Shown here: piece by piece, positions 4,991-53,358 of the stretch
How the letters are laid out: the number at the start of each line of letters is the position of its first letter
How positions within the stretch are numbered: position 1 is the stretch's first letter
Source: a virus
IMG/VR virus record: IMGVR_UViG_3300046028_006182
Span: 1 to 64,000 of that record
Reading direction: 5' to 3' (one strand)
DNA: 64,000 bases
The notes under the pieces: model-generated
Databases searched by the model: none
What the model was told of the DNA's origin: nothing
Seen by the model: only the letters and a program-made list of their open reading frames with translations
Program-made: the position numbers and the translations under genes

Positions 4991-5078
4991 TGCTAGGTTG
5001 TTTCATCTAAAGAGAAATCCCCTTTATAGTATTTTAGAGAGGGCAATACCACGATACTTAAATATAAACAGGTGTATA

Positions 5079-6065
5079 ATGAGAGTACTAGGAGTATGTG
5101 GCGGCAATGGGGTAATGTTACACCCCCTAAAAGATAGACTAATCGCTAACGTAGAAATCAGGTCGGCGTTTAGTACACAGGGTAATACCCAGTGGAGAGA
5201 TAACTTCAGTGATATACCCCTGCTAAAAGCTCTGCCCGAAGTCAAGGGGGTTGATATAATCGTAGGACATCCCGATTGTGGGCATTCCTCTGTACTAGCT
5301 TACAGCAGAAGCAAGAGCTTTGGTAAGCCTAAGGATAACCCAAGCTTAACTCTATACATAAAAGCCGTAAAAAAATATAAACCCAAGGCTTTCTTCATGG
5401 AAAACTTGCCGGCTTTGATTAAAAACTACGGCAAGAGTGACCTAAAAGCGGCTTTCCCGGGGTATAAGCTAGTTTTTATACAGGGTTCAGTTAATATTTG
5501 GGGCAATTCCCAAGTCTCTAGGGAGAGATTAGTTATAGTAGGGATAAATAAAACGTATAGTAAGCCCAATAGGCTAAAAAACTTGCTAAATCGAGAGTTA
5601 TTTGTTGATTTTGTACCCGTAAATACCAATAAACTGCTCCAGGGCCTTGTAATGGGGGAAAATGGCCACCAAAGGGAGCCTGACAATACTATATTAACAA
5701 TATATGCCGGGAAAAAACTATCTGCTTTGCAATGCAAAGAGTATTGGGATGAGAATAAAACCCTCACTCGGTGGAAAGTTACTGACCGGAAGTTTACTAC
5801 TGCCCCTGGCGTTTATCGGAACCAGTCTAAGAGACCTCCCTTCACTGTTAGGAAAGGGAATAGGGAATTTTCACCCGAGGGTTATATGATGAGTCCTAGG
5901 GAAAGAGCTAGGATACAAGGTATACCCGATAGCTTCATCATACACTTTGATAAGTCAAAAACACCGGGCTACTGGATTAATAAGGGGAGGGTAACCGTTA
6001 CTAAAACTGCACCTTACGAGATTGGATTATGGATAGAAAGAGTATTACACAAGATAGCGGTTTAA
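5079..6065 (+). CDS. Divergent DNA (cytosine-5)-methyltransferase family protein (likely start MRVLGVCGG at 5079)
   Basis: Motif order I (GVCGGNG), IV (GHPDC), VI (ENL), VIII (QVSRER), IX (RERARIQGIPD). Confidence 0.8.
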   Translation: MRVLGVCGGNGVMLHPLKDRLIANVEIRSAFSTQGNTQWRDNFSDIPLLKALPEVKGVDIIVGHPDCGHSSVLAYSRSKSFGKPKDNPSLTLYIKAVKKYKPKAFFMENLPALIKNYGKSDLKAAFPGYKLVFIQGSVNIWGNSQVSRERLVIVGINKTYSKPNRLKNLLNRELFVDFVPVNTNKLLQGLVMGENGHQREPDNTILTIYAGKKLSALQCKEYWDENKTLTRWKVTDRKFTTAPGVYRNQSKRPPFTVRKGNREFSPEGYMMSPRERARIQGIPDSFIIHFDKSKTPGYWINKGRVTVTKTAPYEIGLWIERVLHKIAV

Positions 6066-35552: not shown

Positions 35553-36956
35553 ATGGCGGATAAATTTCAGTTTGGGACAGACTTTCAACAGGAGATACTC
35601 AAGGTTACAGCTACTGACAAGAACAACTACAAGATAATACAGTTATACCAACCCGAATACTTTACTCTACTAACACACAAAGCTATAGCCTTTGCCTTTA
35701 AGCGTTATTTTAAGGCTACCGGGAGCTTACCTAATAAGATAGTATTAAGGGAGGAGCTAAGGAAGGTATTCAGGCTAAAGAGCTATAGTGCTGACTACGA
35801 CGAAGCTACTAAAAACCGTACTTTTAAGATAGCCTCCAAGCTATACGCAACTCCCTCTACTAGACCCGAGGATATTATCGAGAGTACCAAGAAGTTTGCT
35901 AGGTTTACCCTGCTCAAGGAGGAAATCTCTAACGTGGACCTGCTCGACTTTGATAACTACGATAAATTCCAGACCAGGGTACAGAATGCTATTACCTTTG
36001 GGCATGAGTCATCCGATAGGGTTGGTACTTTTGTAGTGGGTGGGATAAGAGCTAGGCAAACAGAGCGAAAATTTAGATCCCCAATGGTGGAGTTGCCATA
36101 CCGCCAATGGAACAAGATGATGAATGGCAATGGCTCTGAGAAAGGCAGCTTGATTTGTATATTGGGTAAAGAGAAGGACTTTAAAACGGGTATGCTTATA
36201 AACATCGCTAGAGCCCGACTGCGAAGAGCTAAAAAGATACTCTACATTGACCTTGAGAATAACGAAAGCCCCCTAGCAACTAGGGCTGAGCAATCAATAG
36301 CTCGGTTAACTAAGGAGGATATCCTTTTAGGTAAGAATGACTTAGCTATCCAGAAGATAATGAGGAGGTACCAAAGGATAGGGGCTGAGTTATATATAAA
36401 AAGACTCCCCGCTTACCATGCTACCTGTAACACTATACAAGCCGAGATGGACAAGATGTATAGAGAGTATGGTATTAAGTTTGACGAGATAGTGTTAGAC
36501 TTCATAGGCTTGCTGGGAGCACTCTCTGGCGCTAAGGATGATTTACAACGTATCTCGGATGCCACCGTCGATTTCAAGAACCTGCTGTCCTCTAATCAAA
36601 TAGACCTAGGGTACACAGCTATGCACGTAACTCGGGAGGGGGAAGCTGCTCGGAAGAATACATGCTACATACCTAATGACATTGCCAAGTGTAAAGACAT
36701 TGGGCGACACGTAGATATGCTAGTGGGTATCAACTCAAATGACAATGAGGACCGGGAAGGGGTTATGAGGGTAGAGATGATAGAGCAAAGGGATGGTTTA
36801 CCCTTTGGTAGAGTACTTCTCTGGGTAGATAAGAAAACTCAGCACGTTAAGGAATTCACTATCAAAGAGGAGGAGGCCTATAAACAGCAGATGCAGGAGG
36901 TTATAGACTCTGCCGATGACGTTAAGCGCAAACAGAAAAACTCTAAAGACTTATGA
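35553..36956 (+). CDS. DnaB-like (SF4) replicative helicase
   Basis: LYIDLE, IVLDFIGLL, TAMHVTR, IA.C.DI.RHVD; atypical Walker A GKEKDFKT. Confidence 0.85.
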   Translation: MADKFQFGTDFQQEILKVTATDKNNYKIIQLYQPEYFTLLTHKAIAFAFKRYFKATGSLPNKIVLREELRKVFRLKSYSADYDEATKNRTFKIASKLYATPSTRPEDIIESTKKFARFTLLKEEISNVDLLDFDNYDKFQTRVQNAITFGHESSDRVGTFVVGGIRARQTERKFRSPMVELPYRQWNKMMNGNGSEKGSLICILGKEKDFKTGMLINIARARLRRAKKILYIDLENNESPLATRAEQSIARLTKEDILLGKNDLAIQKIMRRYQRIGAELYIKRLPAYHATCNTIQAEMDKMYREYGIKFDEIVLDFIGLLGALSGAKDDLQRISDATVDFKNLLSSNQIDLGYTAMHVTREGEAARKNTCYIPNDIAKCKDIGRHVDMLVGINSNDNEDREGVMRVEMIEQRDGLPFGRVLLWVDKKTQHVKEFTIKEEEAYKQQMQEVIDSADDVKRKQKNSKDL

Positions 36957-37924
36957 GCTATAACCAGCAACTAAGGGGTAAGATAGTAGAGTATTTTGTA
37001 AAGAGGTATTCTCTAAGGCCTGCTCCCCGGGGCTGGATGCGGGGAGATTGCCCTGTATGCAGGGACAAGAACATATTTGGCATTAACACCCACAGCCTAT
37101 CCACTAATTGTTTTAAGAATAAGTGTACAGAGGGTATTAGTGCTAGTAAGCTCATTATGCAGATTGAGGGAATATCTACTCGGCACGAGCTATATAAGTT
37201 ACTAGAAGCATTCGATGGTACTGCCTACTCGGAAGTAGAAGTAGACTATCAGCCCAGCAGAAAGAAAAAGCCTATAGAATTTCCCGAGTCATACATTCCT
37301 CTAGGTCTATCCGATAACTCCGTAATGGCCCGTAAGGCTAGGAAGGTTTGGAAAAGCCGGGGTTTTTCTATATATAAAGCCACCGTTAATGGCATAGGGT
37401 TTTGCTCATCTGGTGAGTACCGAGGCTACTTTATACTACCCTATTACGTAAAAGGGGAATTGGTATACTTTACAACTCGTAGGTTCTTATCCTCGTTTGG
37501 CCCCAAATTCAAGAACCCCAGTATAGATGACTTCAATGTAGGGAAAAGCCAGTTAATATATAACATCGACGCTTTCCATATCTACCAGAGTATAGACCTA
37601 TTCGAGTCTATTACTAACGCTAATACCTTGGGGAGTAGAGGAGTTGCATTCGGGGGTAAATACCTTTCAGACTGGCAAAAGCAATTTATAATTGAGTCGC
37701 CCTGTGAAAGGTTAACTATATCCCTAGACCGAGACGCATACAAGGAGGCTATTGAATTAGCCTTAGAGTTGGTTTTTTATAAAAAGGTGAGGATAGTACT
37801 TTTCAAGGACAGTCGAGATGCAAATGACCTGGGTAAAAAAGCCTACCTAGAGTTAAGAAAGAAATCAAAGTGGTTGGATTTTAAAACACTTAATAAAATG
37901 CTACAGGATGAGAAGAGTAAATAG
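36953..37924 (+). CDS. dnaG: DNA primase (Zn finger plus TOPRIM)
   Basis: CPVC...NCF...C; KFKNP; FESITNA; LDRDA; DANDL. Confidence 0.9.
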   Translation: MSYNQQLRGKIVEYFVKRYSLRPAPRGWMRGDCPVCRDKNIFGINTHSLSTNCFKNKCTEGISASKLIMQIEGISTRHELYKLLEAFDGTAYSEVEVDYQPSRKKKPIEFPESYIPLGLSDNSVMARKARKVWKSRGFSIYKATVNGIGFCSSGEYRGYFILPYYVKGELVYFTTRRFLSSFGPKFKNPSIDDFNVGKSQLIYNIDAFHIYQSIDLFESITNANTLGSRGVAFGGKYLSDWQKQFIIESPCERLTISLDRDAYKEAIELALELVFYKKVRIVLFKDSRDANDLGKKAYLELRKKSKWLDFKTLNKMLQDEKSK

Positions 37925-38735
37925 CCTCCACATAACCCATCCCGACTTTGTTAAAGTATTAGAGTCAGTTATTGGGAAGAAAAGGATTACCCCCGACGAG
38001 ATTGAACAGGTTTTTAAGAAAGCCTCCAAGTTACAAATCACTAGCCGCTCCATAGATGTCAAAGCCTATAAAAATAACAAGCTATCAAACGTAGCTTTAG
38101 CCAAGAAAACTGATGGTGAGCTATTTAGCCATTTACTAAAGGTAATAAGACAGAGCCACAAGCATCGAGGAGTGAGGATGTATAATGAGGGTGATCCTGA
38201 GTGGGCTACTATTAAGAAACTAAGCAGCGAAGCCAATGCTTTTTGTGAGAACAACAGCCTAGAGCGGGTAGACGGATATAAGAAGTATATCCAAACAGCT
38301 ATGCCACTAATGAAGTCCTTTATTCTACCGAGGATGCTAGGCTTATCCTCTGTGATAGCCGATACTTATGAAGCTTTAGAGGAGATAAGGCTAGATGATA
38401 ACAAAGACCTTACTGCTAGGGTTTACCAAAGATACCTGCAGGTTATAAATGAAAAAACCTCTATCATCCCCAACTACTCCAAAGAGCCCCTACAATATAA
38501 GTACTTCATTGAGTGTGCTCAGATGTGCAAGCAGCTTAGAGTAGAGCCCCTCGACTTTATAAAAGCTCAATTCGAGTATCTACCGTCAGTGCCCTACCCA
38601 TCCCAGCTAGTTGGAGAGAAGGCTAGGAATAGAGTAAGTAGGTACTTATATGATGTAGCCAGTAATAAGATACAAAAACCCCAGGATGACCCCGTATTGG
38701 TAATAGACTTCTCTAAGATTAAAAAGTCAAGATAA
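37908..38735 (+). CDS. Hypothetical replication-module protein
   Basis: 275-aa ORF coupled between primase and helicase. Confidence 0.75.
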   Translation: MRRVNSLHITHPDFVKVLESVIGKKRITPDEIEQVFKKASKLQITSRSIDVKAYKNNKLSNVALAKKTDGELFSHLLKVIRQSHKHRGVRMYNEGDPEWATIKKLSSEANAFCENNSLERVDGYKKYIQTAMPLMKSFILPRMLGLSSVIADTYEALEEIRLDDNKDLTARVYQRYLQVINEKTSIIPNYSKEPLQYKYFIECAQMCKQLRVEPLDFIKAQFEYLPSVPYPSQLVGEKARNRVSRYLYDVASNKIQKPQDDPVLVIDFSKIKKSR

Positions 38736-38736
38736 C

Positions 38737-40182
38737 ATGGCTACTAAACAGGACACCCTGGTATTCCAGGTAAGTAATAACAAGACTAAAATAATTGGGG
38801 ACCCTAAAACTATTGGTTTAATAAGGGAAGACTTTAAAGTAAGAAGCCCAAATGCCTTCTTCTCCCCCGCTTACAGAACTCGGAAATGGGATGGCTTTAT
38901 CCGGTATATCACCGATGTAGGTAATTTTGATACCGGTTTATTGCCCGATGTACTAGGCTATTGCGAGAAGCATAAACTACGAATAGAGATACAGGACCGG
39001 AGAGACTCATATAATCCCCCGGAAGTAGCCAGCAGTATCGGTGAGTTTAATCTTAGACCATACCAAGCCGATGTAGTAGCTGCCTGCATTAGTAATAAGA
39101 TACACACTCTATCTTTCCCAAGGGGTATAGTAGTAGCAGCTACCAACTCAGGTAAAAACTTAATGATAGCCTCAATATTCAAGTCTTTCCCCGAGCATAC
39201 AAGGGGTATAGTCTTACTAAAAGAGAAGGAGTGGTACGAAACATCAGTGATTGAGCTTTCAGAATTGCTAGGAGAAGAAGTTGGCTACCTCAATGCCAAG
39301 TCCTACAAGCCAGGTAGGTTATTGATAGCAATGATGCCCACACTATACTCGAAGCTTACTAAGCCAATTACTAAAGTAGAATACTCTAAACTACTAGCCG
39401 AGATAGACTTGGTTATCGCTGACGAGGGAGATACCACTACCTCTAACCAATTTAAAACAGTCCTACTTAAATGCTCTAATAGTTATGCACGGTATGCCCT
39501 TTCCGGTACCGCATTGATGGGTAAGTACAAAAAGGACTTGCTGAAACACTATGAGCTAAAGAAGTTCTTTGGGGATAAGTTGGTAGAGATAACGAATGAT
39601 TTTATGATTTCAAAGGGCTATTCGACCAAGCCCCTAGTGGTTATAGTAAAGGGTAATAGAGAAGTGGAAATAAGCGGTGATTACCAAGAAGAATATACCC
39701 AAGGCATTGTTCAGAACAAAGCTCGTAACAAAAGGATTTTACGAAGAGCGAAGTACCATGCCGGTAAAGGCAGATACCCTATGCTAATAATCTGCAAAAG
39801 GCATGAGCATATCGAGAAGTTAGCCAAGCTATTTAAAAAGGAATTACCGGGGGTAGTTATTGAAGCAGTCCACCACAAAACAGAAAACCGCAAAGATATA
39901 ATCCAGGCCTTTACTAAGGGTAATATTGAAATACTGATAGCTTCCCACATAGTTAAACGGGCTAAGAACTTCCCTTTAATAAGGTACCTATGCAATGCCA
40001 GTGCGGGTGACTCGGAGGAGGATATAGTTCAGATGGTGGGCCGGGGATTAAGGACACATGAGTCTAAGTCCCGGATATACATTGATGACTTTCATGACAC
40101 AGGTGCATACCTTCTAAGGCATTCAAGACACCGGATAAAGTATTATAAAACCCAAAAGTTTAAGGTAATACAAAAATACTAA
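38737..40182 (+). CDS. Superfamily 2 helicase (UvsW-like)
   Basis: WDG, LRPYQ, ATNSGK, DEGD, LSGT, QMVGRGLR. Confidence 0.92.
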   Translation: MATKQDTLVFQVSNNKTKIIGDPKTIGLIREDFKVRSPNAFFSPAYRTRKWDGFIRYITDVGNFDTGLLPDVLGYCEKHKLRIEIQDRRDSYNPPEVASSIGEFNLRPYQADVVAACISNKIHTLSFPRGIVVAATNSGKNLMIASIFKSFPEHTRGIVLLKEKEWYETSVIELSELLGEEVGYLNAKSYKPGRLLIAMMPTLYSKLTKPITKVEYSKLLAEIDLVIADEGDTTTSNQFKTVLLKCSNSYARYALSGTALMGKYKKDLLKHYELKKFFGDKLVEITNDFMISKGYSTKPLVVIVKGNREVEISGDYQEEYTQGIVQNKARNKRILRRAKYHAGKGRYPMLIICKRHEHIEKLAKLFKKELPGVVIEAVHHKTENRKDIIQAFTKGNIEILIASHIVKRAKNFPLIRYLCNASAGDSEEDIVQMVGRGLRTHESKSRIYIDDFHDTGAYLLRHSRHRIKYYKTQKFKVIQKY

Positions 40183-40214
40183 TAGTATACTCTTATAAAT
40201 AATACTGAACTATT

Positions 40215-40643
40215 ATGCCCAAGGATAAAGACAAAACCAAGAAAAGACGGAAGAGGCCCAGCAGTACACCAGAGAATTTCGATTGGTTTAAACCAGTAGT
40301 AACTGCGGATAAACTAGGGGGAGAAGAAGACCCTTGCTTTGGTAAGCTATACAGCTTGGTACATAAAGCTTGCGGTAGTTGTGGGGATAGCGAACTCTGT
40401 GCTATAGTATACTCCCACCAACTCCATAAAGCCCGTGCCGAGCAAGAAGAAAAGGTAGAGTTTAAGGACTTAGCTGAGGGTGCTTATAAAGCTGAGGGTG
40501 ACAAGAAGATAAGAGCTCTTGCTAAAAAACTCCTGATAGCTGGTAAGTCCTCTAAAGTTATTAAAGCTAGGCTACTAACTAAGTATGGAGTAGTAGAAGC
40601 GGACGCTATAAAGATTATTAATAAACTTAAAGCCAAAATGTAA
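40215..40643 (+). CDS. Cys4 metal-binding protein
   Basis: DPCFG-x8-C-x2-C-x5-C; basic termini. Confidence 0.7.
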   Translation: MPKDKDKTKKRRKRPSSTPENFDWFKPVVTADKLGGEEDPCFGKLYSLVHKACGSCGDSELCAIVYSHQLHKARAEQEEKVEFKDLAEGAYKAEGDKKIRALAKKLLIAGKSSKVIKARLLTKYGVVEADAIKIINKLKAKM

Positions 40644-40647
40644 GGCG

Positions 40648-41523
40648 ATGAAAAAGAGTATAAAAGACGTATCCCAATACCAGGTACCATTTACTTGGGG
40701 AACAGAGCTTCATAGCAAAGAGCTAGCTATAATGTTTAATAAGCAGCGGGAGGTAATCGAGCTATTTTCTAGCATTGAGAGATTACCAGCTTTGCCTCTA
40801 GACATCGGTAAAGCCGATAGCATGAGCTTTCTAAGAGACCTGCTATTTAGGGCTAACATCGAGCTATCAGAGGCTTACACTGAGTACCTAAAGCTATTAA
40901 CCATGCTTTCCTCTAATGTAGATAGAGAAGACATGATACCTACGCTATATGCTTTTAATGAGGAGCTAGCTGACATAGCTCACTTCCTTATTGAGGCCAT
41001 GATATACTCCAATATAGAGGTAGACGATTTAGAGAATTACCTAGATATCTACCTTGAGAGAAATGAGTTCAAGGGTATGTCTAGTAAAGGTAACCCGTTA
41101 GCAACATCACTTAGGGTAGCCCAGTACTTAAACAACACCATTGGTTATCCCCAAATTTTGAAGTTGCCGGCTTTCAATATCCTAGCAGGCTATGAGGAAG
41201 AAAGCATTTGCTTGAAGGGTGGTTCTCGTATTACCCCCGATAGGCTATTCATATTCCAGGACAGTGCTTGGAGGATAACCCATGAGTTAATGAGCTGTGC
41301 TAACCACTTACGGAGCTCTAACTGGTCACTATCCGGTACTCAAACGGATTTTGCTTTATACCACGAGAAATTACTTTCCGTTTGGATAGAGTTTTGCAGA
41401 CTGCTAGTGGCCTTGGATATTGACGTTGTTAACATCTATAGCCTCTACTACCGAAAAAATATTATAAACCAAGAGAGAGCTAAATCTCTGATATTAAAAA
41501 CAACCCATGGGAAGAAAAGTTAA
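40648..41523 (+). CDS. Dimeric (all-alpha) dUTPase/dCTPase-like protein
   Basis: ELSEA, EELADIAHF and the C-terminal YYRKNIINQER motif of the T4 gp56 / dimeric dUTPase family. Confidence 0.75.
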   Translation: MKKSIKDVSQYQVPFTWGTELHSKELAIMFNKQREVIELFSSIERLPALPLDIGKADSMSFLRDLLFRANIELSEAYTEYLKLLTMLSSNVDREDMIPTLYAFNEELADIAHFLIEAMIYSNIEVDDLENYLDIYLERNEFKGMSSKGNPLATSLRVAQYLNNTIGYPQILKLPAFNILAGYEEESICLKGGSRITPDRLFIFQDSAWRITHELMSCANHLRSSNWSLSGTQTDFALYHEKLLSVWIEFCRLLVALDIDVVNIYSLYYRKNIINQERAKSLILKTTHGKKS

Positions 41524-42412
41524 AAAGGTTAAGCCTTTAAAAGTAAAAGAGTTTAACTTCAAGGATGCCCAATTAGCTTGGGCGGGCCTTAATGAGTATT
41601 TGGCTACCCAGGAGAAAGAGGTTTATGCTAGAGGCGGCGGTAGGTATGGACCCGCTCTAAGAAGCTACGACAATATCGTATATATTAGGGATGGGAGGAT
41701 AGACCCCAACTTTGACTTCTCCAGTATGCTTGGATATACCGGCCAGAAGTGGACTTCTCTAGTAAAAAACTATGTTGACCTTAATTATCTTGACTTAGTT
41801 AAGTCCGAAATACTACGGCGGGAGAAAACTAAGTCTAGGAGCTATAACTTTAGCTTCCATTTCAGCAATAAGTACCACTCTGGGAAAGATTGCTTGATAA
41901 GTATATCTTTTATCCGTAGGCTAGATAAAGATAGGCCCATGCTAATCTTTACAACTAGGGCTACAGAGGTAACGAAGAGGCTAATCTTTGACCTGCTACT
42001 TATCCAAAGGATAGGAGAGTATGTATATGGTGAAGGTACTAGGTTTGAGGTTATGTTATTCCTACCGATGATGTATATCTCGGCAGAGCACTTTACTTAC
42101 TACCATGCCTATAAACCAATACCTAGGGTATTGGGTATGCCAAAGAACAAAGGGAAGCTGGGCAAGTTCAGTGCTAGATGTTGGGAAATATACCGCAGGT
42201 TTAAAAAGATTGACGTTACCAAGGTAAAGTTTAAGTCGGACCAGAAGGCAATAGCTCAACTGCAAAGGGTTGTAGCCGGTAAGTCTTTAGGTAAACCCCT
42301 AATTGCTGAGCAGCTTAGGTTAGGTACTATCATTGAGTTCCCAGAGGATTGCATTTCCCCTAAGGAGCGTAAGAGGTTTGTAAGATTAAGAAATCAAAAG
42401 GCTAAGGAATGA
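41507..42412 (+). CDS. Divergent thymidylate-synthase-fold protein (paralogue 1)
   Basis: KDCLISISF (catalytic Cys position); RATEVTKRLIFD aligns with TS RSxDxxxGxxxN. Confidence 0.65.
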   Translation: MGRKVKKVKPLKVKEFNFKDAQLAWAGLNEYLATQEKEVYARGGGRYGPALRSYDNIVYIRDGRIDPNFDFSSMLGYTGQKWTSLVKNYVDLNYLDLVKSEILRREKTKSRSYNFSFHFSNKYHSGKDCLISISFIRRLDKDRPMLIFTTRATEVTKRLIFDLLLIQRIGEYVYGEGTRFEVMLFLPMMYISAEHFTYYHAYKPIPRVLGMPKNKGKLGKFSARCWEIYRRFKKIDVTKVKFKSDQKAIAQLQRVVAGKSLGKPLIAEQLRLGTIIEFPEDCISPKERKRFVRLRNQKAKE

Positions 42413-43200
42413 GCACATACTACAATCTAACTACCGCAATAAACCTAACCAGGGATAAGCTATTCAGCATGGGTACAATTACCCCCACTGAGAAGTGGCA
42501 AGGTAAAGAAGTTAATCGGGATATGCTAGAGCTCCTGGATGTTCACGTGAAGGTATTAGAGGTTCCAAATACTTCCCTAGAGTTAGCTGAGTTAATACAG
42601 CCCAATTTACCCTGGGCAGATATACACTTCGTTGAAAGGGTTGGAGGTAAACCCCTTAATCCGGGTGAGTCATACAAACAATGGCCTTTCTATGGACAGG
42701 ACAGTGCCATGAGAAGCGTATCTCAGAAATTCTCACATACTTACATGGAAAGGTATTGGCCTAAGAAAGCTGGCATATCACCCGGTACACTAGAGTCCTC
42801 CTTTCTTAATAAGGGCATCAGGTATAGCTATGGGGATTTGCTTGATGTAATAGAGCTTCTAAAGAAGGAGCCTTCTACTAGGCAGGCATACCTTCCTATT
42901 TGGTTTCCAGAAGACACGGGGGTAACTTTCGGTGGTAGAGTTCCTTGTACACTGGGTTACCACTTTATAATTAGGGATGGGTTAATCAATGTAACTTACT
43001 ACCTCCGCTCATGCGATGTTTTGAGGCACATGCAAGATGATATTTATTTAACTTGCTTACTCTTAAATTATGTGAAAGATGCACTATCAGAGGTAATGCC
43101 CGAACTAAAGAACGGGTACTACTCTATGCACATAGTATCTCTACACTGCTTTGCTATTGAGAAGAATAAGTTAAAAGCCCGACTAAAAAGCCCTGCATGA
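42409..43200 (+). CDS. Thymidylate-synthase-fold enzyme with dCMP-type Asp (candidate dCMP methylase/hydroxymethylase)
   Basis: TRQA, PCTLGYHF, RSCDVLRHMQDD, SLH. Confidence 0.85.
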   Translation: MSTYYNLTTAINLTRDKLFSMGTITPTEKWQGKEVNRDMLELLDVHVKVLEVPNTSLELAELIQPNLPWADIHFVERVGGKPLNPGESYKQWPFYGQDSAMRSVSQKFSHTYMERYWPKKAGISPGTLESSFLNKGIRYSYGDLLDVIELLKKEPSTRQAYLPIWFPEDTGVTFGGRVPCTLGYHFIIRDGLINVTYYLRSCDVLRHMQDDIYLTCLLLNYVKDALSEVMPELKNGYYSMHIVSLHCFAIEKNKLKARLKSPA

Positions 43201-43613
43201 AAGAAAGAATATCCCGATTAGACTACTTTAAGGAGATGGTACAAGTCGTCTCAAAAAGAGCTACTTGTGGCAGAGCTTGCCAGGGAGCTATAATTGTTAA
43301 AGAAAATAGGGTAATCTCTACCGGTTATAATGGGCCCGTATCAAGGAGTAAACATTGTGAAGAGCTTGGCTGCAATGTAAATGAGTCCTGCAAAGTAAGC
43401 GTACACGCTGAAGCTAACTCAATATACTTTGCTGCCAAGCATGGCATAGCCACGGAAGGAGCCTCATTATACTGTAGTACTGCCCCTTGCCACCTATGCG
43501 CTCAGGCTATTATCCAAGCTGGTATCACAGAGGTATTCTACATCAATGACTATAGGGATAGAGCAGGTATAGAAATACTGGAGTCTAGTAAAGTAGAAGT
43601 ATCTAAATTATAA
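43197..43613 (+). CDS. dCMP deaminase
   Basis: RATC, TGYNG, HAEAN, PCHLC. Confidence 0.95.
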   Translation: MKERISRLDYFKEMVQVVSKRATCGRACQGAIIVKENRVISTGYNGPVSRSKHCEELGCNVNESCKVSVHAEANSIYFAAKHGIATEGASLYCSTAPCHLCAQAIIQAGITEVFYINDYRDRAGIEILESSKVEVSKL

Positions 43614-43634
43614 AGTACAACTCGTACCAACAAT

Positions 43635-45821
43635 ATGGAAGCTAGGTATAAGATTTGCAAGAACCTTGCACAAGTAAAAAAGCTAATAGCCTGCTGCAAA
43701 GAAACGGGATATGCGTGCTTAGATTTCGAGACAACCTCTGGCAAATTCTACGAGATAACCGAGCACCCCACAGTATTAGGCATATCTTATCAGCCCGGCT
43801 CAGCGGTAGTAGTACCCCTTTACCATGATGAGTCCCCGTTCAAACATAACTACAGAAAGGTATTAAAGCTAATAGGTAGGGAGGTAATATCAAATCCCGA
43901 TATTGTTAAGATTGGGCAAAACTTTAAATTTGAGCACTCCTGGTTTCTAAGGTTTAATATAGTACCAAGAGGTAGGATATTAGATACAATGTTAGCTAAG
44001 TACTTACTGGATGAGGAAAGGCCGCATGACTTGAAGAGTATGGTTTCTAGGTTTATACCTGAGTACTCTGACTATGAGAGCGAGATACAAGCCCTTGCTC
44101 GGCAGCATGGCTGGGCAAAGATACCTATGGAGCCACTAGCTAAATACAATGCCCTAGATTGCATACTCACTTTTAAGCTAATGCTATTCTTTGAGCCGAA
44201 GTTAATGGAGCTTAATATGTATTCGCTATTTAGAAACCTCTTGATGCAACTTAGCAGGACTCTTGCTGAGTCTGAGTATAGGGGTATTCTAGTGGATAAG
44301 CAATACTTAGAGGGTATAACTGCTGACACTCGTAAGAAGCTAGATGACCTTTACCAAGAGAAAGTAATTGGGCATAAGGTTATTAAAAGGTATATCCGAA
44401 AATCTACAAAGGTAAAGGTAAAAGCTTTAATTAAAAGCGTAAAGCAGGAGATAAGCGATTTACAAGAGTCGGGCAAAGGGATGAGTGACCGGGTAATAGT
44501 TAGTAGGTTAACTAAAATACAAAACTACTCTAGGGGCATATTCACTACCAAAAAGGAGTTAAAGATGGTTGAGCCTATTAATCTAAACAGCTCACACCAA
44601 CTAATAGACTTTCTTTTTACCTCGAAGCATGGTCTACAGCTACCAGTAGTTAGATTTACAGTTGACAAGAAAACCAAGCAGCAGAAAACTACCCCATCAA
44701 CGGATGAGACCAGCTTGCTAGAGCTACGAGAGCTAGATGAAACGGGTTTTATTGATACCCTATTACTACACCGCTCAGAGCAAAAGCTATACAGTACCTA
44801 TATGGTGGGTATATTAGAGAAGATATCCTCTAAAAATAGAATACACACTAAGTTCAATATCCATGGTACTGTTACTGGCAGGCTATCTTCAACCAACCCA
44901 AATCTACAAAACATTCCCCGAAGTACTACATCATCCCTTATCAAGAAGATGTTTATCCCACCACCGGGCTACCTAATACTTGAGGTCGATTACTCCCAAG
45001 CAGAGCTAAGGATAGTAGCTGAGCTTGCAAAGGAGAAAACCATGATTAAGTGGTTCAATGAGGGTAGAAACATACACGTAGCGGTAGCTTGCAAAGCTAA
45101 TGGTCGTGAAGATGACTATGATGAGATTTATAAGATAAGCAAAGACCCAAGCCACCCCGACTACAATTACTGGACTATCCGTAAGAAAAGGGCTAAGACT
45201 ATTAACTTTGGTATCTTGTATGGGCAGGGTGCTAAGAAGTTAGCAGAAACTCTAAACTCTAAACTAGAGGAGGGTGAAAAGAAAACATCAGAGCAAGCGG
45301 CAGCTAAGTTCAAAAAGGAGTGGCTAGAAACTTTCCCAAGGATTGATAAGTGGATTAAAGGGCAATTCAGATTTGCCTATGATAATGGATATGTCCCCAC
45401 AGTATTTGGTAGGAAAAGGAGATTACCTGATATTTACCTTGAGAACTCTCACAAAGGTAAATTCCTAGAGGCTCAAAGACAATCAGTAAATGCCCCGATA
45501 CAGGGTGCATCATCTGACTTTACCCTATTCAGCTCTATTATCGTGAGGGAATATATACTTAAAGGCTTACTCCCTAGGGATATGTTGCAATGCTATACAG
45601 TACATGACTCAATTGGTTATTACATAAGACCCGAGGATTTACACAGAGTAGTACCGATACTTGACGAGATATGCTCTAATCCCCAGACCGGGAAATACTT
45701 TCACTTCCAAGCTAAGTACGTTAAGATGAAGGTATCATTTGAGGTGGGCAGAAACTGGGGAAGTTTACAAGATTACAACCCAAGCATAAACTATACAGAT
45801 TTTTTAAACCAACAAAACTAG
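43635..45821 (+). CDS. polA: Family A DNA polymerase with 3'-5' exonuclease
   Basis: DFET ExoI; TGRLSS.NPNLQNIP; DYSQAELR; RAKTINFGILYG; HDS. Confidence 0.97.
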   Translation: MEARYKICKNLAQVKKLIACCKETGYACLDFETTSGKFYEITEHPTVLGISYQPGSAVVVPLYHDESPFKHNYRKVLKLIGREVISNPDIVKIGQNFKFEHSWFLRFNIVPRGRILDTMLAKYLLDEERPHDLKSMVSRFIPEYSDYESEIQALARQHGWAKIPMEPLAKYNALDCILTFKLMLFFEPKLMELNMYSLFRNLLMQLSRTLAESEYRGILVDKQYLEGITADTRKKLDDLYQEKVIGHKVIKRYIRKSTKVKVKALIKSVKQEISDLQESGKGMSDRVIVSRLTKIQNYSRGIFTTKKELKMVEPINLNSSHQLIDFLFTSKHGLQLPVVRFTVDKKTKQQKTTPSTDETSLLELRELDETGFIDTLLLHRSEQKLYSTYMVGILEKISSKNRIHTKFNIHGTVTGRLSSTNPNLQNIPRSTTSSLIKKMFIPPPGYLILEVDYSQAELRIVAELAKEKTMIKWFNEGRNIHVAVACKANGREDDYDEIYKISKDPSHPDYNYWTIRKKRAKTINFGILYGQGAKKLAETLNSKLEEGEKKTSEQAAAKFKKEWLETFPRIDKWIKGQFRFAYDNGYVPTVFGRKRRLPDIYLENSHKGKFLEAQRQSVNAPIQGASSDFTLFSSIIVREYILKGLLPRDMLQCYTVHDSIGYYIRPEDLHRVVPILDEICSNPQTGKYFHFQAKYVKMKVSFEVGRNWGSLQDYNPSINYTDFLNQQN

Positions 45822-45825
45822 GCGT

Positions 45826-46512
45826 ATGAGAATTGGATTATCCGGACCAAGTGGCTCTGGCAAGACGACGATAGCTAAGATATTAGCAGAGTCATTAGGT
45901 ATACCCTTTATCCCGACATCGGTAGAGAATGTATTAAGTGAGTGGCAAAAAGAATACCTAAGTCAGAAGTACGGTTATGAAGCTAAGGGCCATAAGAATG
46001 TTATCCAGCTATCGGGAGCTAATCCTGAATTTGCAAAAGAGTTCCAGCTCATGGTTAAATCGGGTAGAGCAGCTCTATTAGCTGAGCATGAAAGCTACAT
46101 AGTAGACCGTACCGCTATTGACAACATGGCTTATTACTTATCAGAGGGTGCTGCCTATGACACCTATGAGCAGTCCGTCCTATTCCTTATGGATGTTAGG
46201 GATAATCTAAAAGCCCTAGATGTTGTATTTGTTATAAAAGCAGTACAGCCTAGTAGAGAGGTAGAAGATAACAACTCTCGTATACCCAACTGGATATATC
46301 AGAAAGGGGTAGAGGGTAACTTCATTACAGCGAAGAATTTAATTTACGACCTTGAGTCTTTAGATGAGTTGCAAGAGCTTCCCTTAGTACAGACTATAGG
46401 CTACTGGGATTTAAGAACTCGCCAGCAGGATATGCTAACTCGTATAGCCAAGAGGGTAGAGATGAAAGCTGACTTCATCAAGAAAGTAAAAATGAGAACC
46501 GATGAGTACTAA
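45826..46512 (+). CDS. P-loop (deoxy)nucleoside monophosphate kinase
   Basis: GPSGSGKTT; DRTAID. Confidence 0.8.
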   Translation: MRIGLSGPSGSGKTTIAKILAESLGIPFIPTSVENVLSEWQKEYLSQKYGYEAKGHKNVIQLSGANPEFAKEFQLMVKSGRAALLAEHESYIVDRTAIDNMAYYLSEGAAYDTYEQSVLFLMDVRDNLKALDVVFVIKAVQPSREVEDNNSRIPNWIYQKGVEGNFITAKNLIYDLESLDELQELPLVQTIGYWDLRTRQQDMLTRIAKRVEMKADFIKKVKMRTDEY

Positions 46513-46978
46513 GAGCTTAAGCCTACTCCTCCAAGCCAAGAAGTTTAACCTATCTAAGGTTAAAATACACGTAGATGGCAAGGATATTGAGATTGACTTG
46601 TATAAAGAGCTAAGGGTAGAACGTAGGCTAGTTAATATGGGGAGCGATGAGTTACGTCAGTTACCCCCGATATACGGCTTCTTAAAAACTATCGAGGCAA
46701 GGCTTACCGAGCAAGTAGAATTAGCAGTAAACAATGAAGAAAGGGTTTACTCTTTATTATTTGTAAGATATAAGAAAGATTTAGTAAAGGGAAGGCCCCC
46801 ATCTGATGATACCGCAAAATACCTAGTAGTAGGTAGCAAGAAGTATCAAAAGGCAAAGGTAGAAACCATAAACCTTAGGGCTAACCTTAACAAGATTAAA
46901 GCAGCTACTCGTTCCTTTGAGATGAAGAAAGAGCTACTGCAAACCTTATCAGCTAACTCTAGGAAAGAGAAAGTATAA
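46502..46978 (+). CDS. UvsY-like recombination mediator
   Basis: Helical, ends KKELLQTLSANSRKE; precedes SSB and RecA. Confidence 0.6.
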   Translation: MSTKSLSLLLQAKKFNLSKVKIHVDGKDIEIDLYKELRVERRLVNMGSDELRQLPPIYGFLKTIEARLTEQVELAVNNEERVYSLLFVRYKKDLVKGRPPSDDTAKYLVVGSKKYQKAKVETINLRANLNKIKAATRSFEMKKELLQTLSANSRKEKV

Positions 46979-47005
46979 CCATATAACTATAAAAACCCCA
47001 TCACA

Positions 47006-47806
47006 ATGGCAAAGAAAGTGAAAGACGACCTAGGGTCCAACAAGAAATCAAAAATGAGCTTACAAGAGAAGCTGGCAAAGAAAAGAGAGGATGTAAAGAA
47101 AGGTGAGGGCGGGAACATTGATATGTTCTATGTAAAGGAGGGTGTAAATCGTTTTAGGCCGGCATTCTGTGGAGAAGATGTTGACTTCTCAATAGAAGTT
47201 ATCTCTTTCTACCTCGGTAAGGAGATTAAAGGTTTTGTATCTCCCCATACCGTAGGTAAACCTTGCGCCGGTATGGAGGTATATAATGCCCTATTGAAGT
47301 CCTCTAATGAGAGCGACAAGGAGCTAGCTAATGAATGCAAACCCAAAAGGAAGCAAGCTATTGCGATGCACAAATACAATGACGACAAGGGCAAAGAGCT
47401 TGACACCCGGTCGGGAGTTAAATTAACTCCTCTAGCCAATGGAGTATATGGGCAAATCCTGGATTTCTTTTTAGATGAGGAACATGGGGACTTTACCCAC
47501 CCTAAAGATGGGTATGACATTAAGATAAAGCGTGAGGGTAGTGGGAAAGAAAATACAAGCTATACTGCTACTCCTTGTAAACCAACCGCTTTACCTAAAG
47601 AGCTTCAGAAAGAGGTATATAGCCCATCTAAGTTACTAGATGAAGTTATCCCCTCTTATGAGGAGACCGTTTCCAAAATGAAAGAATTTCTGGGGTTGGA
47701 TGAGGATGATGACCTTACTCAATTTATCCAAGAGATCTCCGGTAAGAAATCTAGCTCTAAGAAATCTAGCTCTACCAAAGAGGTTAAGAAGAAAAAGAAG
47801 AAGTAG
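47006..47806 (+). CDS. Single-stranded DNA-binding protein (gp32-like)
   Basis: EGVNRFRP, C.G.E, GYDIKIKREGSG..TSY. Confidence 0.75.
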   Translation: MAKKVKDDLGSNKKSKMSLQEKLAKKREDVKKGEGGNIDMFYVKEGVNRFRPAFCGEDVDFSIEVISFYLGKEIKGFVSPHTVGKPCAGMEVYNALLKSSNESDKELANECKPKRKQAIAMHKYNDDKGKELDTRSGVKLTPLANGVYGQILDFFLDEEHGDFTHPKDGYDIKIKREGSGKENTSYTATPCKPTALPKELQKEVYSPSKLLDEVIPSYEETVSKMKEFLGLDEDDDLTQFIQEISGKKSSSKKSSSTKEVKKKKKK

Positions 47807-47828
47807 AGCATCGCAATATGCTTAAACT

Positions 47829-47864
47829 AAAGGGGAGTTACTTTAACGAGTACTCCCCTTTTTT
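47829..47864 (+). terminator. Rho-independent terminator
   Basis: AAAGGGGAGT / ACTCCCCTTT plus T run. Confidence 0.85.
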
Positions 47865-47884
47865 AATCTAAAAACCCCAAGATA

Positions 47885-49033
47885 ATGGCAAAAAAGAAAG
47901 GTGGCTCAGGCATCACGGTTATGACCGAGTCAGAGATAAATAAAAAGTACGCAGGCCTATCCACTAATGCGGCAGATGCCGAGGAAGAGGCTGGTAATAT
48001 GTTAAGAATACCCACTAGGTGTATTTGGTTGAACTATCAAACGGGTGGGGGATTTGTTTATGGTAGGGTACATGAGGTATTCGGCTATGAGTCATCAGGT
48101 AAAACCCTTTTAGCTAAGGAGGTGGGCATAGCTACTCAAAAGTTAGGGGGCGTAGTAATTTGGGGTGATGCCGAGAATGCTTTTGATTTAGCTTGGGCTA
48201 AGAAGGTAGGCCTAGACTTAACCCGTATGTTTATATACAACCGTAATGACATTGAGGGTTTTTCTGACTGGGCTAGAGATATGTGCGTAGCTCAACGAAG
48301 TAAACTAACTAACAATGAACCAATTACTTTAGTTTTAGACTCTATTGCTGCACTAGAGTGCATAGATAACCTCAATGCCGACTCACTTGACTCGAAGGCG
48401 CAGATGGGTAATAGAGCTAAAGCTATCTACCGCTTTTACCGAGAACGTAACAACCTATTCTCTAAGCTAGGTATAACGGTTATAATGATTAACCAAGTAC
48501 GTAGCAAGGTAGGAGCATCTATGTTTGAAGCTGCTACAACCCAGCCCGGGGGGGAGGCTACTAGGTTCTATTCATCTATACGAATAGCTATCGTACCTAG
48601 CAAGATGATTAAAGGACACTGGAATGATGCCTCGGGTGAGTGGGTAGACTCAAGGCTGAAAGAGAATGATGTAAAGGTAGGTAAAGAGGTTATTGTAAAG
48701 ATTGAAAAGAATAAAACAGCTGCCACTGAGTCCGATGTGAGAACCGAGGTATACTTTAAACCCGATAAGTCTGGTTACGTAGGGTTCTCTAAGTATGCAG
48801 GGCTAGATAAGATACTCCTGGACACAGGTATACTTAAAAAGTCGGGCATGAGCTATGTATACCGATACAAGAAAGCAGACCACGTATTGACTAAGAAGCG
48901 GGATGGGATTATACCATGCTTGCAGAGCGATGACAATGCCCGTAGAGTAATCCTACAAAAGCTCGGGGTATTAACGATTTCAAAGGCAGCAGAAAGGCTG
49001 GAGTCTATAAAAACTAACCTATTCCCTGTATGA
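47885..49033 (+). CDS. recA: RecA/UvsX recombinase
   Basis: GYESSGKT, DAE, LDSIAAL, INQVR, PGG.A.RFYSSIR, KNK. Confidence 0.95.
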   Translation: MAKKKGGSGITVMTESEINKKYAGLSTNAADAEEEAGNMLRIPTRCIWLNYQTGGGFVYGRVHEVFGYESSGKTLLAKEVGIATQKLGGVVIWGDAENAFDLAWAKKVGLDLTRMFIYNRNDIEGFSDWARDMCVAQRSKLTNNEPITLVLDSIAALECIDNLNADSLDSKAQMGNRAKAIYRFYRERNNLFSKLGITVIMINQVRSKVGASMFEAATTQPGGEATRFYSSIRIAIVPSKMIKGHWNDASGEWVDSRLKENDVKVGKEVIVKIEKNKTAATESDVRTEVYFKPDKSGYVGFSKYAGLDKILLDTGILKKSGMSYVYRYKKADHVLTKKRDGIIPCLQSDDNARRVILQKLGVLTISKAAERLESIKTNLFPV

Positions 49034-49932
49034 GTACTCAGATAATCCTTATAATAGACGGGCAGAATAACCTATACAGAGCTCACCATTCTTATCATGG
49101 TTTGAAGTCTACCTCTAATGAGCATACTTCTTGCATCTTTGGGTTCCCGTCTATTATAAAGCCCTTGCTTCAAAAGTTTAAGCCCCACAAAACCATAATA
49201 TGCTGGGATGGTAAGCGAAGCAAAGAGCGATTGGAGATACTACCCACTTACAAAGCTAAGAGGTCGGAAAGTATAACCGGCAATGAAGTAAGGGAAGCTA
49301 TCCAAGAGCAGAGGCCCACAGTAATGAAATTGATATATGCCCTGGGTATTTGCCAAGCCTATAGCAAACAGGTTGAGGGGGATGACATGCTATATATGGT
49401 ATGGCGAAGGTACAAGAGGCTAATCAAATCGGGTAAGAGCTATAAATTGATTATAGTATCACGTGATAAGGATTTCCATCAACTTATAGATAAGGACACA
49501 TCAGTATGGGACCCCTTCAAGGGTATGCTGCTAACTAAGAATAACTTGAAAGCCTTATTTAACTATGAGCCACACGAGGTAGTAGACTACCTATGCTTAC
49601 TAGGGGATAGTTCAGATAATATCCCCGGATATCGGGGCTTCGGTGAGAAAAGGGTTAGAGAATTCATAGATAACTACAAACTCGTGAATGGGCAATACCG
49701 GATAAAAAAACCCATGAGAGTAGACCTCATCAAGTTAGCTGATACTCTAGCGGTTAATAGGAAGCTAATAGACCTTGCCATGTTTCACAGGAAGCACCAA
49801 CCTAACAAAACTATCGAGTACTTCAATTCTAAAAGAAACCCGAAGCTAGACGTAGGGGCTGTGAAGAATATAGCTAGGAAGTATAGCATAGGGACTTTCT
49901 TTAAAAGTGATTTCCTAAAAACCTTTGAGTAA
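49030..49932 (+). CDS. 5'-3' exonuclease / flap endonuclease
   Basis: IIDG.N.LYRA, YKAKR, EGDD, SRDKDFHQL, GDSSDNIPG.RGFGEK. Confidence 0.95.
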   Translation: MSTQIILIIDGQNNLYRAHHSYHGLKSTSNEHTSCIFGFPSIIKPLLQKFKPHKTIICWDGKRSKERLEILPTYKAKRSESITGNEVREAIQEQRPTVMKLIYALGICQAYSKQVEGDDMLYMVWRRYKRLIKSGKSYKLIIVSRDKDFHQLIDKDTSVWDPFKGMLLTKNNLKALFNYEPHEVVDYLCLLGDSSDNIPGYRGFGEKRVREFIDNYKLVNGQYRIKKPMRVDLIKLADTLAVNRKLIDLAMFHRKHQPNKTIEYFNSKRNPKLDVGAVKNIARKYSIGTFFKSDFLKTFE

Positions 49933-50924
49933 TGAGAAGAAAACCTATAGCCTTAGCCGTATCTGATATCCACTTCAATGAGTGGGCTCAGTATAATTCA
50001 GATGGAACAAGAACCTACCAAGGTAAAAGAATACTAAGCACTCTAGCGAACCGATGCAAAAAATTAAATGTTCCTTTAATCTTTACCGGAGATTTACTAC
50101 ACGATAACGATAGAGTAACAAATACTATACTCCGAGACGTTAACGACTCCTTTAGAAATTTAAAAAGGAAAGGGGTGCGCTTTATAGCTATAGATGGTAA
50201 CCATGACCAGGTGAGGAAGAATTACATTGATAGCTTCAGCCCTAACTATATTGAGTCTTTGAGTTATGCTTTCTCTAATATTGATTACTGCAGGTTCACT
50301 GCCACCAAGGTATCAGACGGCATACTAGCCATAGGTATACCTTATATAACTAACAACAAGGACTACGGTACAGCTGTAAAGATATGTGTAGACAAGCTAG
50401 AGGAGATAGACCCCCGGCACAAACGTAAGTGGGTATGCTTGATACACACATCACTACCGGGTGCAAAGGAGCCGTCAGGCTTTGAGAGAACGGAGGCTGA
50501 GAATATGAACCGTACCTTTTACAAGATGTTTAAGGATTTTGACTTAGTATTATCCGGCCACATACATAAACCCCAAAGAGTAGCTAAGGGTATCTACATG
50601 CTGGGTGCTCCTGCCCATCAAACGAAGTCAGACATGGGTTGTGAGATGGGCTATTGGGAAGTATATGAAGACCTTACTATGAAGTTTAAGGCCTTAGATG
50701 AACCCCAATACATACCGGAGCATGAGGCTAAAGACTATGACACATACAATTATATAGTACCTACGGTTAGAGAACCGGTATTGCCCGAAGGTACCCAGGA
50801 AGCTCAGAAATTTCTAAACACGGACAGCAGGGTTAAGATTGCCAAGAAGTATTGCAAGGCTAGGGGTATCAAGAGCAAGAAACTAAGGAACACATTAGAC
50901 GAAATACTAAGAGAGGTAGAATGA
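49932..50924 (+). CDS. sbcD: SbcD/Mre11-like metallophosphoesterase nuclease
   Basis: SDIH, GD, GNHD, GHIH. Confidence 0.9.
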   Translation: MRRKPIALAVSDIHFNEWAQYNSDGTRTYQGKRILSTLANRCKKLNVPLIFTGDLLHDNDRVTNTILRDVNDSFRNLKRKGVRFIAIDGNHDQVRKNYIDSFSPNYIESLSYAFSNIDYCRFTATKVSDGILAIGIPYITNNKDYGTAVKICVDKLEEIDPRHKRKWVCLIHTSLPGAKEPSGFERTEAENMNRTFYKMFKDFDLVLSGHIHKPQRVAKGIYMLGAPAHQTKSDMGCEMGYWEVYEDLTMKFKALDEPQYIPEHEAKDYDTYNYIVPTVREPVLPEGTQEAQKFLNTDSRVKIAKKYCKARGIKSKKLRNTLDEILREVE

Positions 50925-52794: not shown

Positions 52795-53358
52795 ATGGGT
52801 ACTAGGATAAACAGCAGAGCCAAGGGGGCAAAGCACGAGAAAGAAGTTGCTAAGTTACTAGAGGCTTGGACTGGTAAAGAGTTTGCTAGGGTACCCAGCT
52901 CTGGGGGGCTAAGGTGGCACAAGACAAGTAATACCACTGGAGATATAACCTGTACAACAGAGGGCCACTACTTCCCGTTTTCAGTTGAAATAAAAGCCCG
53001 TAACAAAGTAGACTTTAGCAGAATACTAATCCCTTATAATGGTAACTCTAAGGCTGAGAAAGATAAGGACTCAGAGTTTGAAACCTTCTGGCAACAGGCT
53101 ATCTCTGATGCTGACCGGGCAAAGAAAGAGCCCATACTATTTGTGAGGTACAATGGCATGAAGAAAGACCTATACTTTGTAGCTATAACCAAAGACCTGT
53201 TCTATGATTACTTTAAGCAGGCTACCTCCTGTACTAAGTATCTAGTATATGGAGATAAAGAGTTTGTAGTAATACCCTCCACTGAGCTGTTTAAAGCTAA
53301 CTATAAAAAGATAAAAGCCCACATTAAAACCTTGAGAAGCCATGGGAAGAAAAAGTGA
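52795..53358 (+). CDS. Holliday junction resolvase (PD-(D/E)xK)
   Basis: NSRAKG..HE, RVPSSGG, GD, VEIK, WQQA. Confidence 0.85.
   Translation: MGTRINSRAKGAKHEKEVAKLLEAWTGKEFARVPSSGGLRWHKTSNTTGDITCTTEGHYFPFSVEIKARNKVDFSRILIPYNGNSKAEKDKDSEFETFWQQAISDADRAKKEPILFVRYNGMKKDLYFVAITKDLFYDYFKQATSCTKYLVYGDKEFVVIPSTELFKANYKKIKAHIKTLRSHGKKK

Follow-up and report, generated by a model that had tools for sequence, protein, structure and literature searches.

Why would a phage carry, close to its DNA polymerase gene, two thymidylate synthase (TS)-fold genes in tandem, both with the aspartate that goes with a cytosine substrate? The question is raised by IMG/VR virus record IMGVR_UViG_3300046028_006182, of which we analysed positions 1 to 64,000 (the window). 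The viral genome is complete at 76,141 bp, has direct terminal repeats and is found in lake-water metagenomes (two lake-water DNA sequencing runs contain the stretch and no RNA run is listed). Its two genes, here called p3 and p4, are translationally coupled, and such a tandem of TS-fold genes with the cytosine-type Asp proved to be a conserved unit beside a pyrophosphatase and a family A DNA polymerase (PolA). This pairing is more widespread than the window alone could show and is currently unannotated. The cassette to which the pair belongs consists of the following genes:

40648..41523 (+): all-alpha nucleotide pyrophosphohydrolase (dimeric dUTPase_2/MazG-like), 291 aa; PF08761, phrog_12184, phrog_173
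41507..42412 (+): p3, a very divergent TS-fold protein of a virus-only family without a name, 301 aa; AlphaFold2, Foldseek, hhalign
42409..43200 (+): p4, a TS-family enzyme of an Asp177 clade without a characterised member, 263 aa; PF00303
43197..43613 (+): deoxycytidine monophosphate (dCMP) deaminase of ComEB/T4 cd type, 138 aa; PF00383 (E 1.6e-18), phrog_174 (E 1.9e-42), TIGR02571 (E 1e-35)
43635..45821 (+): PolA with a 3'-5' exonuclease domain, 728 aa; PF00476 (E 3.5e-80), PF01612 (E 6.4e-19)
45826..46512 (+): P-loop nucleotide kinase, thymidylate-kinase-like, 228 aa; phrog_2107 (E 8.3e-11), weak P-loop kinase Pfam matches

Both junctions of p4, with p3 and with the deaminase, are ATGA overlaps. 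A first-pass annotation made from the letters alone had described this locus; its coordinates, motifs, Asp codons and p3/p4 overlap were exact when we re-checked them, and its interpretation as a whole is partly supported.

Residue signatures of p4 and p3

The p4 motif RSCDVLRHMQDD begins at residue 200 and holds Asp211 (codon 43039, GAT), with the catalytic Cys at C180. HMMER aligned Asp211 to position 229 of L. casei TS, which is Asn177 in E. coli (whose numbering is used below for TS positions), and the best PDB sequence match of p4 is 1njc, the dCMP-specific N229D mutant, so the earlier assignment of this residue stands. By published rules Asp177 gives specificity for cytosine, D169N marks the flavin hydroxylases, and position 143 holds a hydrophobic residue in methylases but an acidic one in hydroxymethylases and hydroxylases (PMC13326640 sections 24 and 28; PMC8670742). 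Cytosine-modified contigs, on which a pyrophosphohydrolase and a dCMP deaminase are encoded as well, can be told apart by positions 177 and 147 (PMC8670742; PMC13326640).

At these and the neighbouring positions p4 has C180 at C146, Thr181 at H147, Arg177 at L143, Asp203 at D169, Asp211 at N177, R158-Q159 for R126-R127 and Phe248 at Y209, and it lacks the TS C-terminal tail, stopping 17 residues past His246, where RB69 td runs about 70 more. Its clade keeps the TS residues Tyr94, Arg126, Cys146, Arg166, Ser167, Asp169 and His207, and changes Arg127 to Gln, Leu143 to Arg, His147 to Thr or Ser, Gly173 to His, Asn177 to Asp and Tyr209 to Phe, the exception being the Clostridium CP3 homologue, which retains Tyr209. 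Asp177 is invariant in the family and position 147 is Thr or Ser throughout. Judged by its residues, this clade signature (Arg at L143, Thr at H147, Asp169 kept) matches no characterised enzyme.

The catalytic Cys C180 together with D211, D203 and T181 gives p4 the residues of a dCMP hydroxymethylase, and the nearest match of the p4 family profile is the CMP hydroxymethylase MilA (E 2.2e-8). Unlike the flavin-dependent 5-hydroxy-dCMP synthases, namely HY126 AfhB (PDB 9iqu/9iqc), RB69 gp48 and DLP3 gp80 (PMC13326640), neither p4 (Asp203) nor p3 (Glu154) has Asn at the Asp169 position, where the RB69 enzyme and AfhB show RSQN; at the L143 position those synthases have Glu, p4 has Arg and p3 has Gly. 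From its sequence p4 is presumed to be a dCMP C5 one-carbon transferase. Several features lean towards a non-reductive, hydroxymethyl-type transfer: p4 has Thr147 and Asp169, its C-terminus is short, its family is close to MilA, and the genome encodes no dihydrofolate reductase (DHFR).

In p3 the motif RATEVTKRLIFD begins at residue 151 and holds Asp162 (codon 41990, GAC), and C129 is the Cys at the catalytic position. No match to p3 was found at the thresholds used in Pfam, NCBIfam or PDB sequences (searched with the single protein, and for PDB with the profile too), and p3 matches just one PHROG, of unassigned function. Its AlphaFold2 model, built on a 46-sequence alignment, has a pLDDT of 93.6, and the Foldseek structure matches are AfhB, MilA, T4 dCMP hydroxymethylase and TS; in viral structure libraries and the ESM Atlas the nearest proteins are uncharacterised viral ones, followed by TS and dCMP hydroxymethylase proteins. 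Moreover, a broad p3 profile aligned to a mixed TS reference alignment by hhalign (probability 95.1%, E 3.4e-8, 201 columns), and a narrow p3 profile gave no significant match to the p4 alignment (E 0.19). In the model the strand that bears the Cys and the Arg-x10-Asn/Asp helix stand in register within a TS alpha/beta fold; C129 falls at C146, R151 at R166, E154 at D169 and D162 at N177. The TS fold of p3 that the first-pass annotation had proposed is thus borne out by the predicted structure, by structure comparison and by profile alignment.

An exhaustive profile search of 1.84 billion proteins returned 193 cluster representatives of the p3 family. Among 41 sequences of the superfamily, down to 13% identity to p3, the invariant residues are exactly Y89, C129, R151 and D162, with conservation of at least 90% at N29, Y77, K81, W82, L85, F119 and E154. 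Three of the invariant four coincide with key positions of TS, namely the nucleophile, the phosphate clamp Arg166 and the residue for pyrimidine specificity, and E154 coincides with the acid at 169. The earlier statement that p3 has the Cys and the Asp and lacks the SxD residues needs amending in its last part, since the acid is not simply lost: Glu154 stands at the Asp169 position. Arg105 is conserved in the narrow family only. Because the nucleophile Cys, Arg166 and the Asp177-type residue never vary, and a scaffold would not need them, p3 looks catalytic; its residue pattern is less that of a scaffold than of an enzyme whose phosphate site has changed.

Beyond the fold, p3 carries a helical C-terminal extension of about 100 aa ending in a basic tail (42329-42412, FPEDCISPKERKRFVRLR). 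This tail resembles a peptide, [YF]P-x7-10-[KR]-x2-[FYWH]-[RK], that is present in four small early proteins (55079-55654, 58809-59429, 59523-60074 and, in genome coordinates, 64346-64756), where shuffled sequences predict 0.6 matches instead of four. Such a common peptide could serve for docking.

Conservation of the p3-p4 unit

Conservation was counted in 80 related IMG/VR loci retrieved with p3. In these p4 accompanies p3 in 77-78/80 loci, the pyrophosphatase is present in 70-71/80 and PolA in 79/80, and the 4-nt ATGA overlap of p3 and p4 recurs in 33/78. The deaminase was found in 27/80 loci and the kinase in 21/80; in loci without a deaminase p4 mostly abuts PolA, the gap being -22 to +138 nt in 47/50 loci and 292 nt at most. 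No dCMP-deaminase domain was found anywhere in the genome of a complete relative (G002). What had been described as a dNTPase-deaminase-PolA-kinase cassette is therefore conserved in the pair, the pyrophosphatase and PolA, and the dCMP deaminase and kinase are accessory members.

The same module is present in cultured phages whose hosts belong to at least three phyla (Actinomycetota, Pseudomonadota and Bacillota). The usual order there is kinase, dUTPase/MazG, a hypothetical protein of 249-353 aa, "thymidylate synthase", usually dCMP deaminase, and PolA, the kinase standing upstream of the pyrophosphatase, unlike here. A p3 hidden Markov model built without those phages matched the hypothetical protein upstream of the p4-like gene in 8/8 cultured phages, with E-values from 4.6e-61 to 4.8e-9: Clostridium CP3 (4.6e-61), Serratia Opt-155 gp50 (2.5e-19), Brevundimonas Polewnik 77 (3.5e-19), Desulfofustis phage 51 (1.1e-18), Yersinia P744 ORF027 (3e-18), Gordonia Burnsey gp48 (1.9e-14), Streptomyces Zuko gp75 (1.4e-9) and Muddy gp47 (4.8e-9). 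In Muddy, a therapy phage, the pair is gp47 (p3-like) and gp46 (p4-like). PolA lies downstream of the pair in 8/8 cultured phages checked, and a dCMP deaminase lies just downstream in 6/8, five by annotation and the sixth being Muddy gp45.

As to annotation, the P744 homologue of p3 (vB_YenM_P744 ORF027, 4208-5041 of its locus) is labelled 'pyrimidine hmase synthase', and those of Muddy (gp47, 3093-3986 of its locus) and of the Gordonia, Serratia, Streptomyces, Brevundimonas and Clostridium phages are labelled 'hypothetical protein'. Muddy gp45 is likewise annotated as hypothetical, and its N-terminus resembles dCMP deaminase. The Muddy and P744 genomes hold no second PF00303 match, no DHFR was found in the five cultured carriers searched for one, and in the literature searched on cultured carriers we found no statement on DNA modification or restriction resistance.

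Within a cellular collection of 185,579 species genomes the p4 family was found on only 11 contigs of metagenome-assembled genomes, each below 50 kb, so that the family is essentially viral. No p3-p4 fusion was found among the longer p3 relatives, which have no second Pfam domain, or in a search of longer proteins, which is weak evidence. Adjacency of p3 and p4 is usual, not absolute: in the 22.9-kb fragment IMGVR_UViG_3300020814_000749 a p3 homologue is followed by an Mre11-like gene, with the p4 homologue about 5 kb further on.

The limits of the pairing are clearest in a sister group of p4 (group II), which has an NPPPS motif, about 49% identity and the same active-site signature, makes up 16/40 rows of the p4 alignment, and is found chiefly on the long contigs of jumbo phages, which reach 434 kb. 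Examples are found at 2220-3176 of locus L104 and 4793-6334 of locus L105. When the neighbourhoods of group II genes were counted in 80 loci of their own (L114-L193), p3, the pyrophosphatase, the deaminase and PolA were nearby in 0/80, and a Saprospirales metagenome-assembled genome with a group II p4 gene gave no p3 match at all. Since p4-type enzymes of group II occur without p3, an obligate p3:p4 heterodimer is unlikely for the family on these sequence comparisons; a complex prediction for p4 and p3 scored 0.00 and weighs neither way.

The cassette itself sits in a + strand replication module (35553-52756), in which a DnaB-like helicase and primase, a 275-aa protein, a UvsW-like helicase and a 142-aa Cys-rich protein precede it, and a gp32-like single-stranded DNA-binding protein, RecA, FEN and Mre11/Rad50-like proteins follow it. 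Megablast of the cassette against phage records gave no match. The 142-aa protein (40215-40643, +) is lysine-rich, has a Cys cluster containing CxxC and no real family match, and is kept directly upstream of the pyrophosphatase in 73/80 related loci. Elsewhere in the early and replication regions lie a phage PDDEXK endonuclease (52795-53358, +; PF24608, E 3.8e-30) and a protein with a pyrimidine-dimer DNA glycosylase domain (62493-63068, +; PF03013, E 3.6e-5).

A possible two-step modification of dCMP

Our preferred reading, held with modest confidence, is that the cassette modifies dCMP at C5 before replication, in two enzymatic steps and with two active TS-fold enzymes. The all-alpha pyrophosphatase would supply monophosphates, presumably dCMP; p4, as a folate-type TS homologue that has been retargeted to cytosine, would add a one-carbon group to C5 of dCMP, hydroxymethyl being likelier than methyl; and p3 would run a second Cys-dependent reaction on a cytosine nucleotide, either on the p4 product or in parallel. 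The thymidylate-kinase-like kinase, of the phage or the host, and the phage PolA would then carry the product into DNA, and the dCMP deaminase, where present, would balance or divert the pool. What we observe are the folds, the signature residues, the gene order and how well the pair is conserved; the substrates and products, and a full, partial or absent entry of the product into DNA, are what we infer from these. More tentative, and possible rather than probable, is the proposal that p3 is a new catalytic TS-fold branch acting after p4 on C5-substituted dCMP, where it might reduce or trap an exocyclic-methylene intermediate regenerated from 5-hydroxymethyl-dCMP, or deaminate via a covalent Cys-C6 adduct.

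The first enzyme of this scheme scores 27.7 bits against PF08761 (gathering cut-off 22.9), with a match that spans residues 239-279 only; phrog_173 covers residues 20-280, and the protein matches the Muddy gp48 region (E 4e-8). It is presumed to convert dCTP or dUTP to the monophosphate. A parallel had been drawn with the dimeric dCTPase of T4, and this holds as far as membership of the dimeric dUTPase_2 family goes; in the comparison with T4 there was no match, and similarity to gp56 was not detected.

Several observations weigh against the two-step reading. The acidic residue of the hydroxymethylases is absent from the L143 position of p4, where every family member and each of the 8 cultured homologues has the Arg (Arg177 in p4); because an Arg there fits neither published class, the p4 product is not readable from sequence. 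In p3 the equivalents of the phosphate-binding arginines R21 and R126/R127 are unconserved in the broad alignment. A GT34 glycosyltransferase, which would fit a hydroxyl-bearing product, lies directly downstream of p4 in a few group II members (2/80 loci, once fused to an FkbM methyltransferase domain), and with only these two loci a general link between p4 and glycosyltransferases was rejected. Further points concern the state of cytosine in this lineage's DNA, beginning with one more gene of the window:

5079..6065 (+): C5-cytosine DNA methyltransferase-like gene outside the cassette (open reading frame from 4821, an internal Met being the probable start); PF00145 (E 8.5e-17)

Motifs I, IV, VI and VIII are recognisable in it (GVCGGNG, HPDCGHSS, ENLP and RERLVIVG), motif IV being unusual in reading HPDCG for PPCQ, and its match to TIGR00675 (E 2.2e-9) is below the cut-off. 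A homologue is present in 5/5 related genomes as well as in this one, and absent from five cultured carriers of the pair. Since such a methyltransferase needs an unsubstituted C5, complete replacement of cytosine conflicts with what this lineage encodes. Moreover, GATC occurs 15 times against 221 expected (Markov model, whole genome; observed/expected (O/E) 0.07), CGATCG and TGATCA do not occur at all, and other C-containing 4-mer palindromes have O/E values of 0.66-1.1 in the whole genome; this avoidance implies that the DNA is still under selection from a GATC-directed nuclease. Taken together, these sequence features suggest DNA in which many cytosines carry no substituent and which lacks broad protection against restriction. 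About 40 other open reading frames compared with Pfam and PHROG include no glycosyltransferase, DNA kinase, amino-acid or polyamine transferase, or TET-like gene. The methyltransferase, the GATC deficit and the missing post-replicative modifiers raise the odds of partial modification or of a role in the nucleotide pool, and they weaken the first of the two models in the first-pass annotation, in its form of a genome with all cytosine replaced.

A nucleotide-pool role is taken furthest by an Xp12-like route, in which dCMP would be modified at C5 and then deaminated to dTMP or a thymidine analogue (or to 5-hydroxymethyl-dUMP), with the cytosines of the DNA canonical. The deaminating agent could be the zinc deaminase where present, a host enzyme, or p3 itself via a covalent Cys adduct. 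In Xp12-infected cells the route reported by Kuo, Chow and Lin is said to be deamination of 5-methyl-dCMP. The second model of the first-pass annotation, methylation of dCMP followed by deamination as an alternative path to dTMP, is of this kind, and its novelty does not hold: going by its title, the 1982 paper of these authors (Virology 118:293, cited in PMC8543423) already concerned a new thymidylate biosynthesis in Xp12-infected cells, which provides a biochemical precedent.

The conserved methyltransferase and the strong GATC avoidance, both at home with unmodified cytosine, fit such a route, as do the thymidylate-kinase-like nature of the kinase and the dCMP deaminase that is translationally coupled to p4 here and stands near the pair in six of the eight cultured carriers. 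The genome encodes no other thymidylate synthase: a scan of all 76,141 bp gave one PF00303 match (p4), no ThyX, no DHFR and no other TS, so that the earlier statement that no Asn-type ThyA, ThyX or DHFR is visible in the window extends to the whole genome. The Xp12/Pamexvirus 5-methylcytosine module, which consists of dCMP methyltransferase, dCMP deaminase, DHFR and pyrophosphohydrolase (PMC9206674, PMC8543423), likewise has an Asp177 TS homologue adjoining a pyrophosphohydrolase and a dCMP deaminase near PolA. However, the deaminase is missing from 53/80 loci, where p4 mostly lies against PolA, and from G002, a complete relative; p4 ends without the C-terminal segment of TS; and there is no DHFR here, whereas Xp12-type phages encode one (PMC9206674). 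The Xp12-type modules of AXL1 and PaMx28 (PMC9206674) also differ in having a single TS homologue and no p3, against two TS-fold genes, no DHFR and an optional deaminase in our cassette. In PaMx28, whose locus we fetched, DHFR is encoded in cis beside that single TS homologue, with no p3-like gene; its ThyA has Asn at L143 and Pro at H147 and is 27% identical to p4 over half its length. We therefore regard the reverse route as unlikely for this cassette.

More improbable still is that p3 is a non-catalytic partner, a pseudoenzyme in a TS-like heterodimer that regulates or stabilises p4 or tethers it to the replisome. TS-fold enzymes are dimers that share active sites, p3 and p4 are constantly adjacent with an ATGA overlap, which suggests that they are co-expressed in equimolar amounts, the R21 and R126/R127 equivalents are gone from p3 along with all detectable Pfam similarity, and its tail resembles the short peptide of the four small early proteins, a possible docking motif. 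Yet the residues of p3 that never vary include the nucleophile Cys, Arg166 and the Asp177-type residue, with Glu at 169 in at least 90% of sequences; group II enzymes with the same signature as p4 exist without p3; and a p3-p4 fusion was not found.

That p4 is a divergent conventional dUMP-methylating TS, with p3 functionally unrelated, is very improbable: p4 passes the PF00303 gathering score at 28.1 bits, GenBank labels its homologues in cultured phages thymidylate synthase, and a dCMP deaminase upstream of TS is the textbook supply of dUMP, but Asn177 and His147, required of a ThyA, are replaced throughout the family by Asp and by Thr or Ser (Asp211 and Thr181 here), the best NCBIfam TS model scores 33.8 bits against an equivalog cut-off of 174.55, the C-terminal tail is missing and the best PDB sequence match is a dCMP-specific mutant.

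Relation to known cytosine-modifying systems

Among the closest known systems is the hydroxymethylcytosine pathway of T4, which follows the same logic and comprises the gp56 dCTPase/dUTPase, gp42 dCMP hydroxymethylase, gp1 dNMP kinase, cd dCMP deaminase and gp43 polymerase. Like T4, this phage holds together a pyrophosphatase, a TS-fold enzyme with Asp177, a kinase, a dCMP deaminase and a polymerase, and p4 shares with gp42 the Cys, the Thr at H147, Asp169, Asp177 and a short C-terminus. Unlike gp42, p4 has Arg in place of Asp at the L143 position and R-Q in place of R-R. The cassette further differs from T4 in its second TS-fold enzyme, p3, and in a pyrophosphatase without detectable similarity to gp56, and the genome differs in having no glycosyltransferase and a conserved C5 DNA methyltransferase.

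MilA, the mildiomycin CMP 5-hydroxymethylase (PDB 5b6d, 5jnh), is unlike the cassette in belonging to bacterial secondary metabolism and using a ribonucleotide substrate; it has Asp at the L143 position, has no second TS-fold partner and stands outside a replication module. Another related system is a neighbourhood described by MetaGPA, in which a TS homologue with Asp177 and without His147 is found together with a dCMP deaminase and a pyrophosphohydrolase of MazG/PRA-PH type (PMC8670742). The DNA of the MetaGPA contigs resisted cytosine deamination, and neighbourhoods like ours are in this way linked to cytosine-modified phage DNA in metaviromes (PMC8670742). MetaGPA worked with Pfam domains, was thus blind to a protein such as p3 that has none, and described no paired TS-fold unit (PMC8670742).

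Most known phage DNA hypermodifications start from a pyrimidine that TS homologues have modified before replication, and the earlier branches (hydroxymethyl, methyl and, since 2025, hydroxyl) each brought new chemistry and anti-restriction biology. Added here are an Asp177 clade set apart by an Arg at the position that determines the product and a second TS-fold family that is invisible to current annotation. Should p3 indeed act after p4, phages of many bacterial phyla, Muddy included, would make a pyrimidine or thymidylate by an undescribed, two-enzyme split TS chemistry. Since cultured carriers exist, one of them therapeutic, the product of the pair can be identified directly, and its identity would improve the reading of hundreds of phage "thymidylate synthase" annotations.

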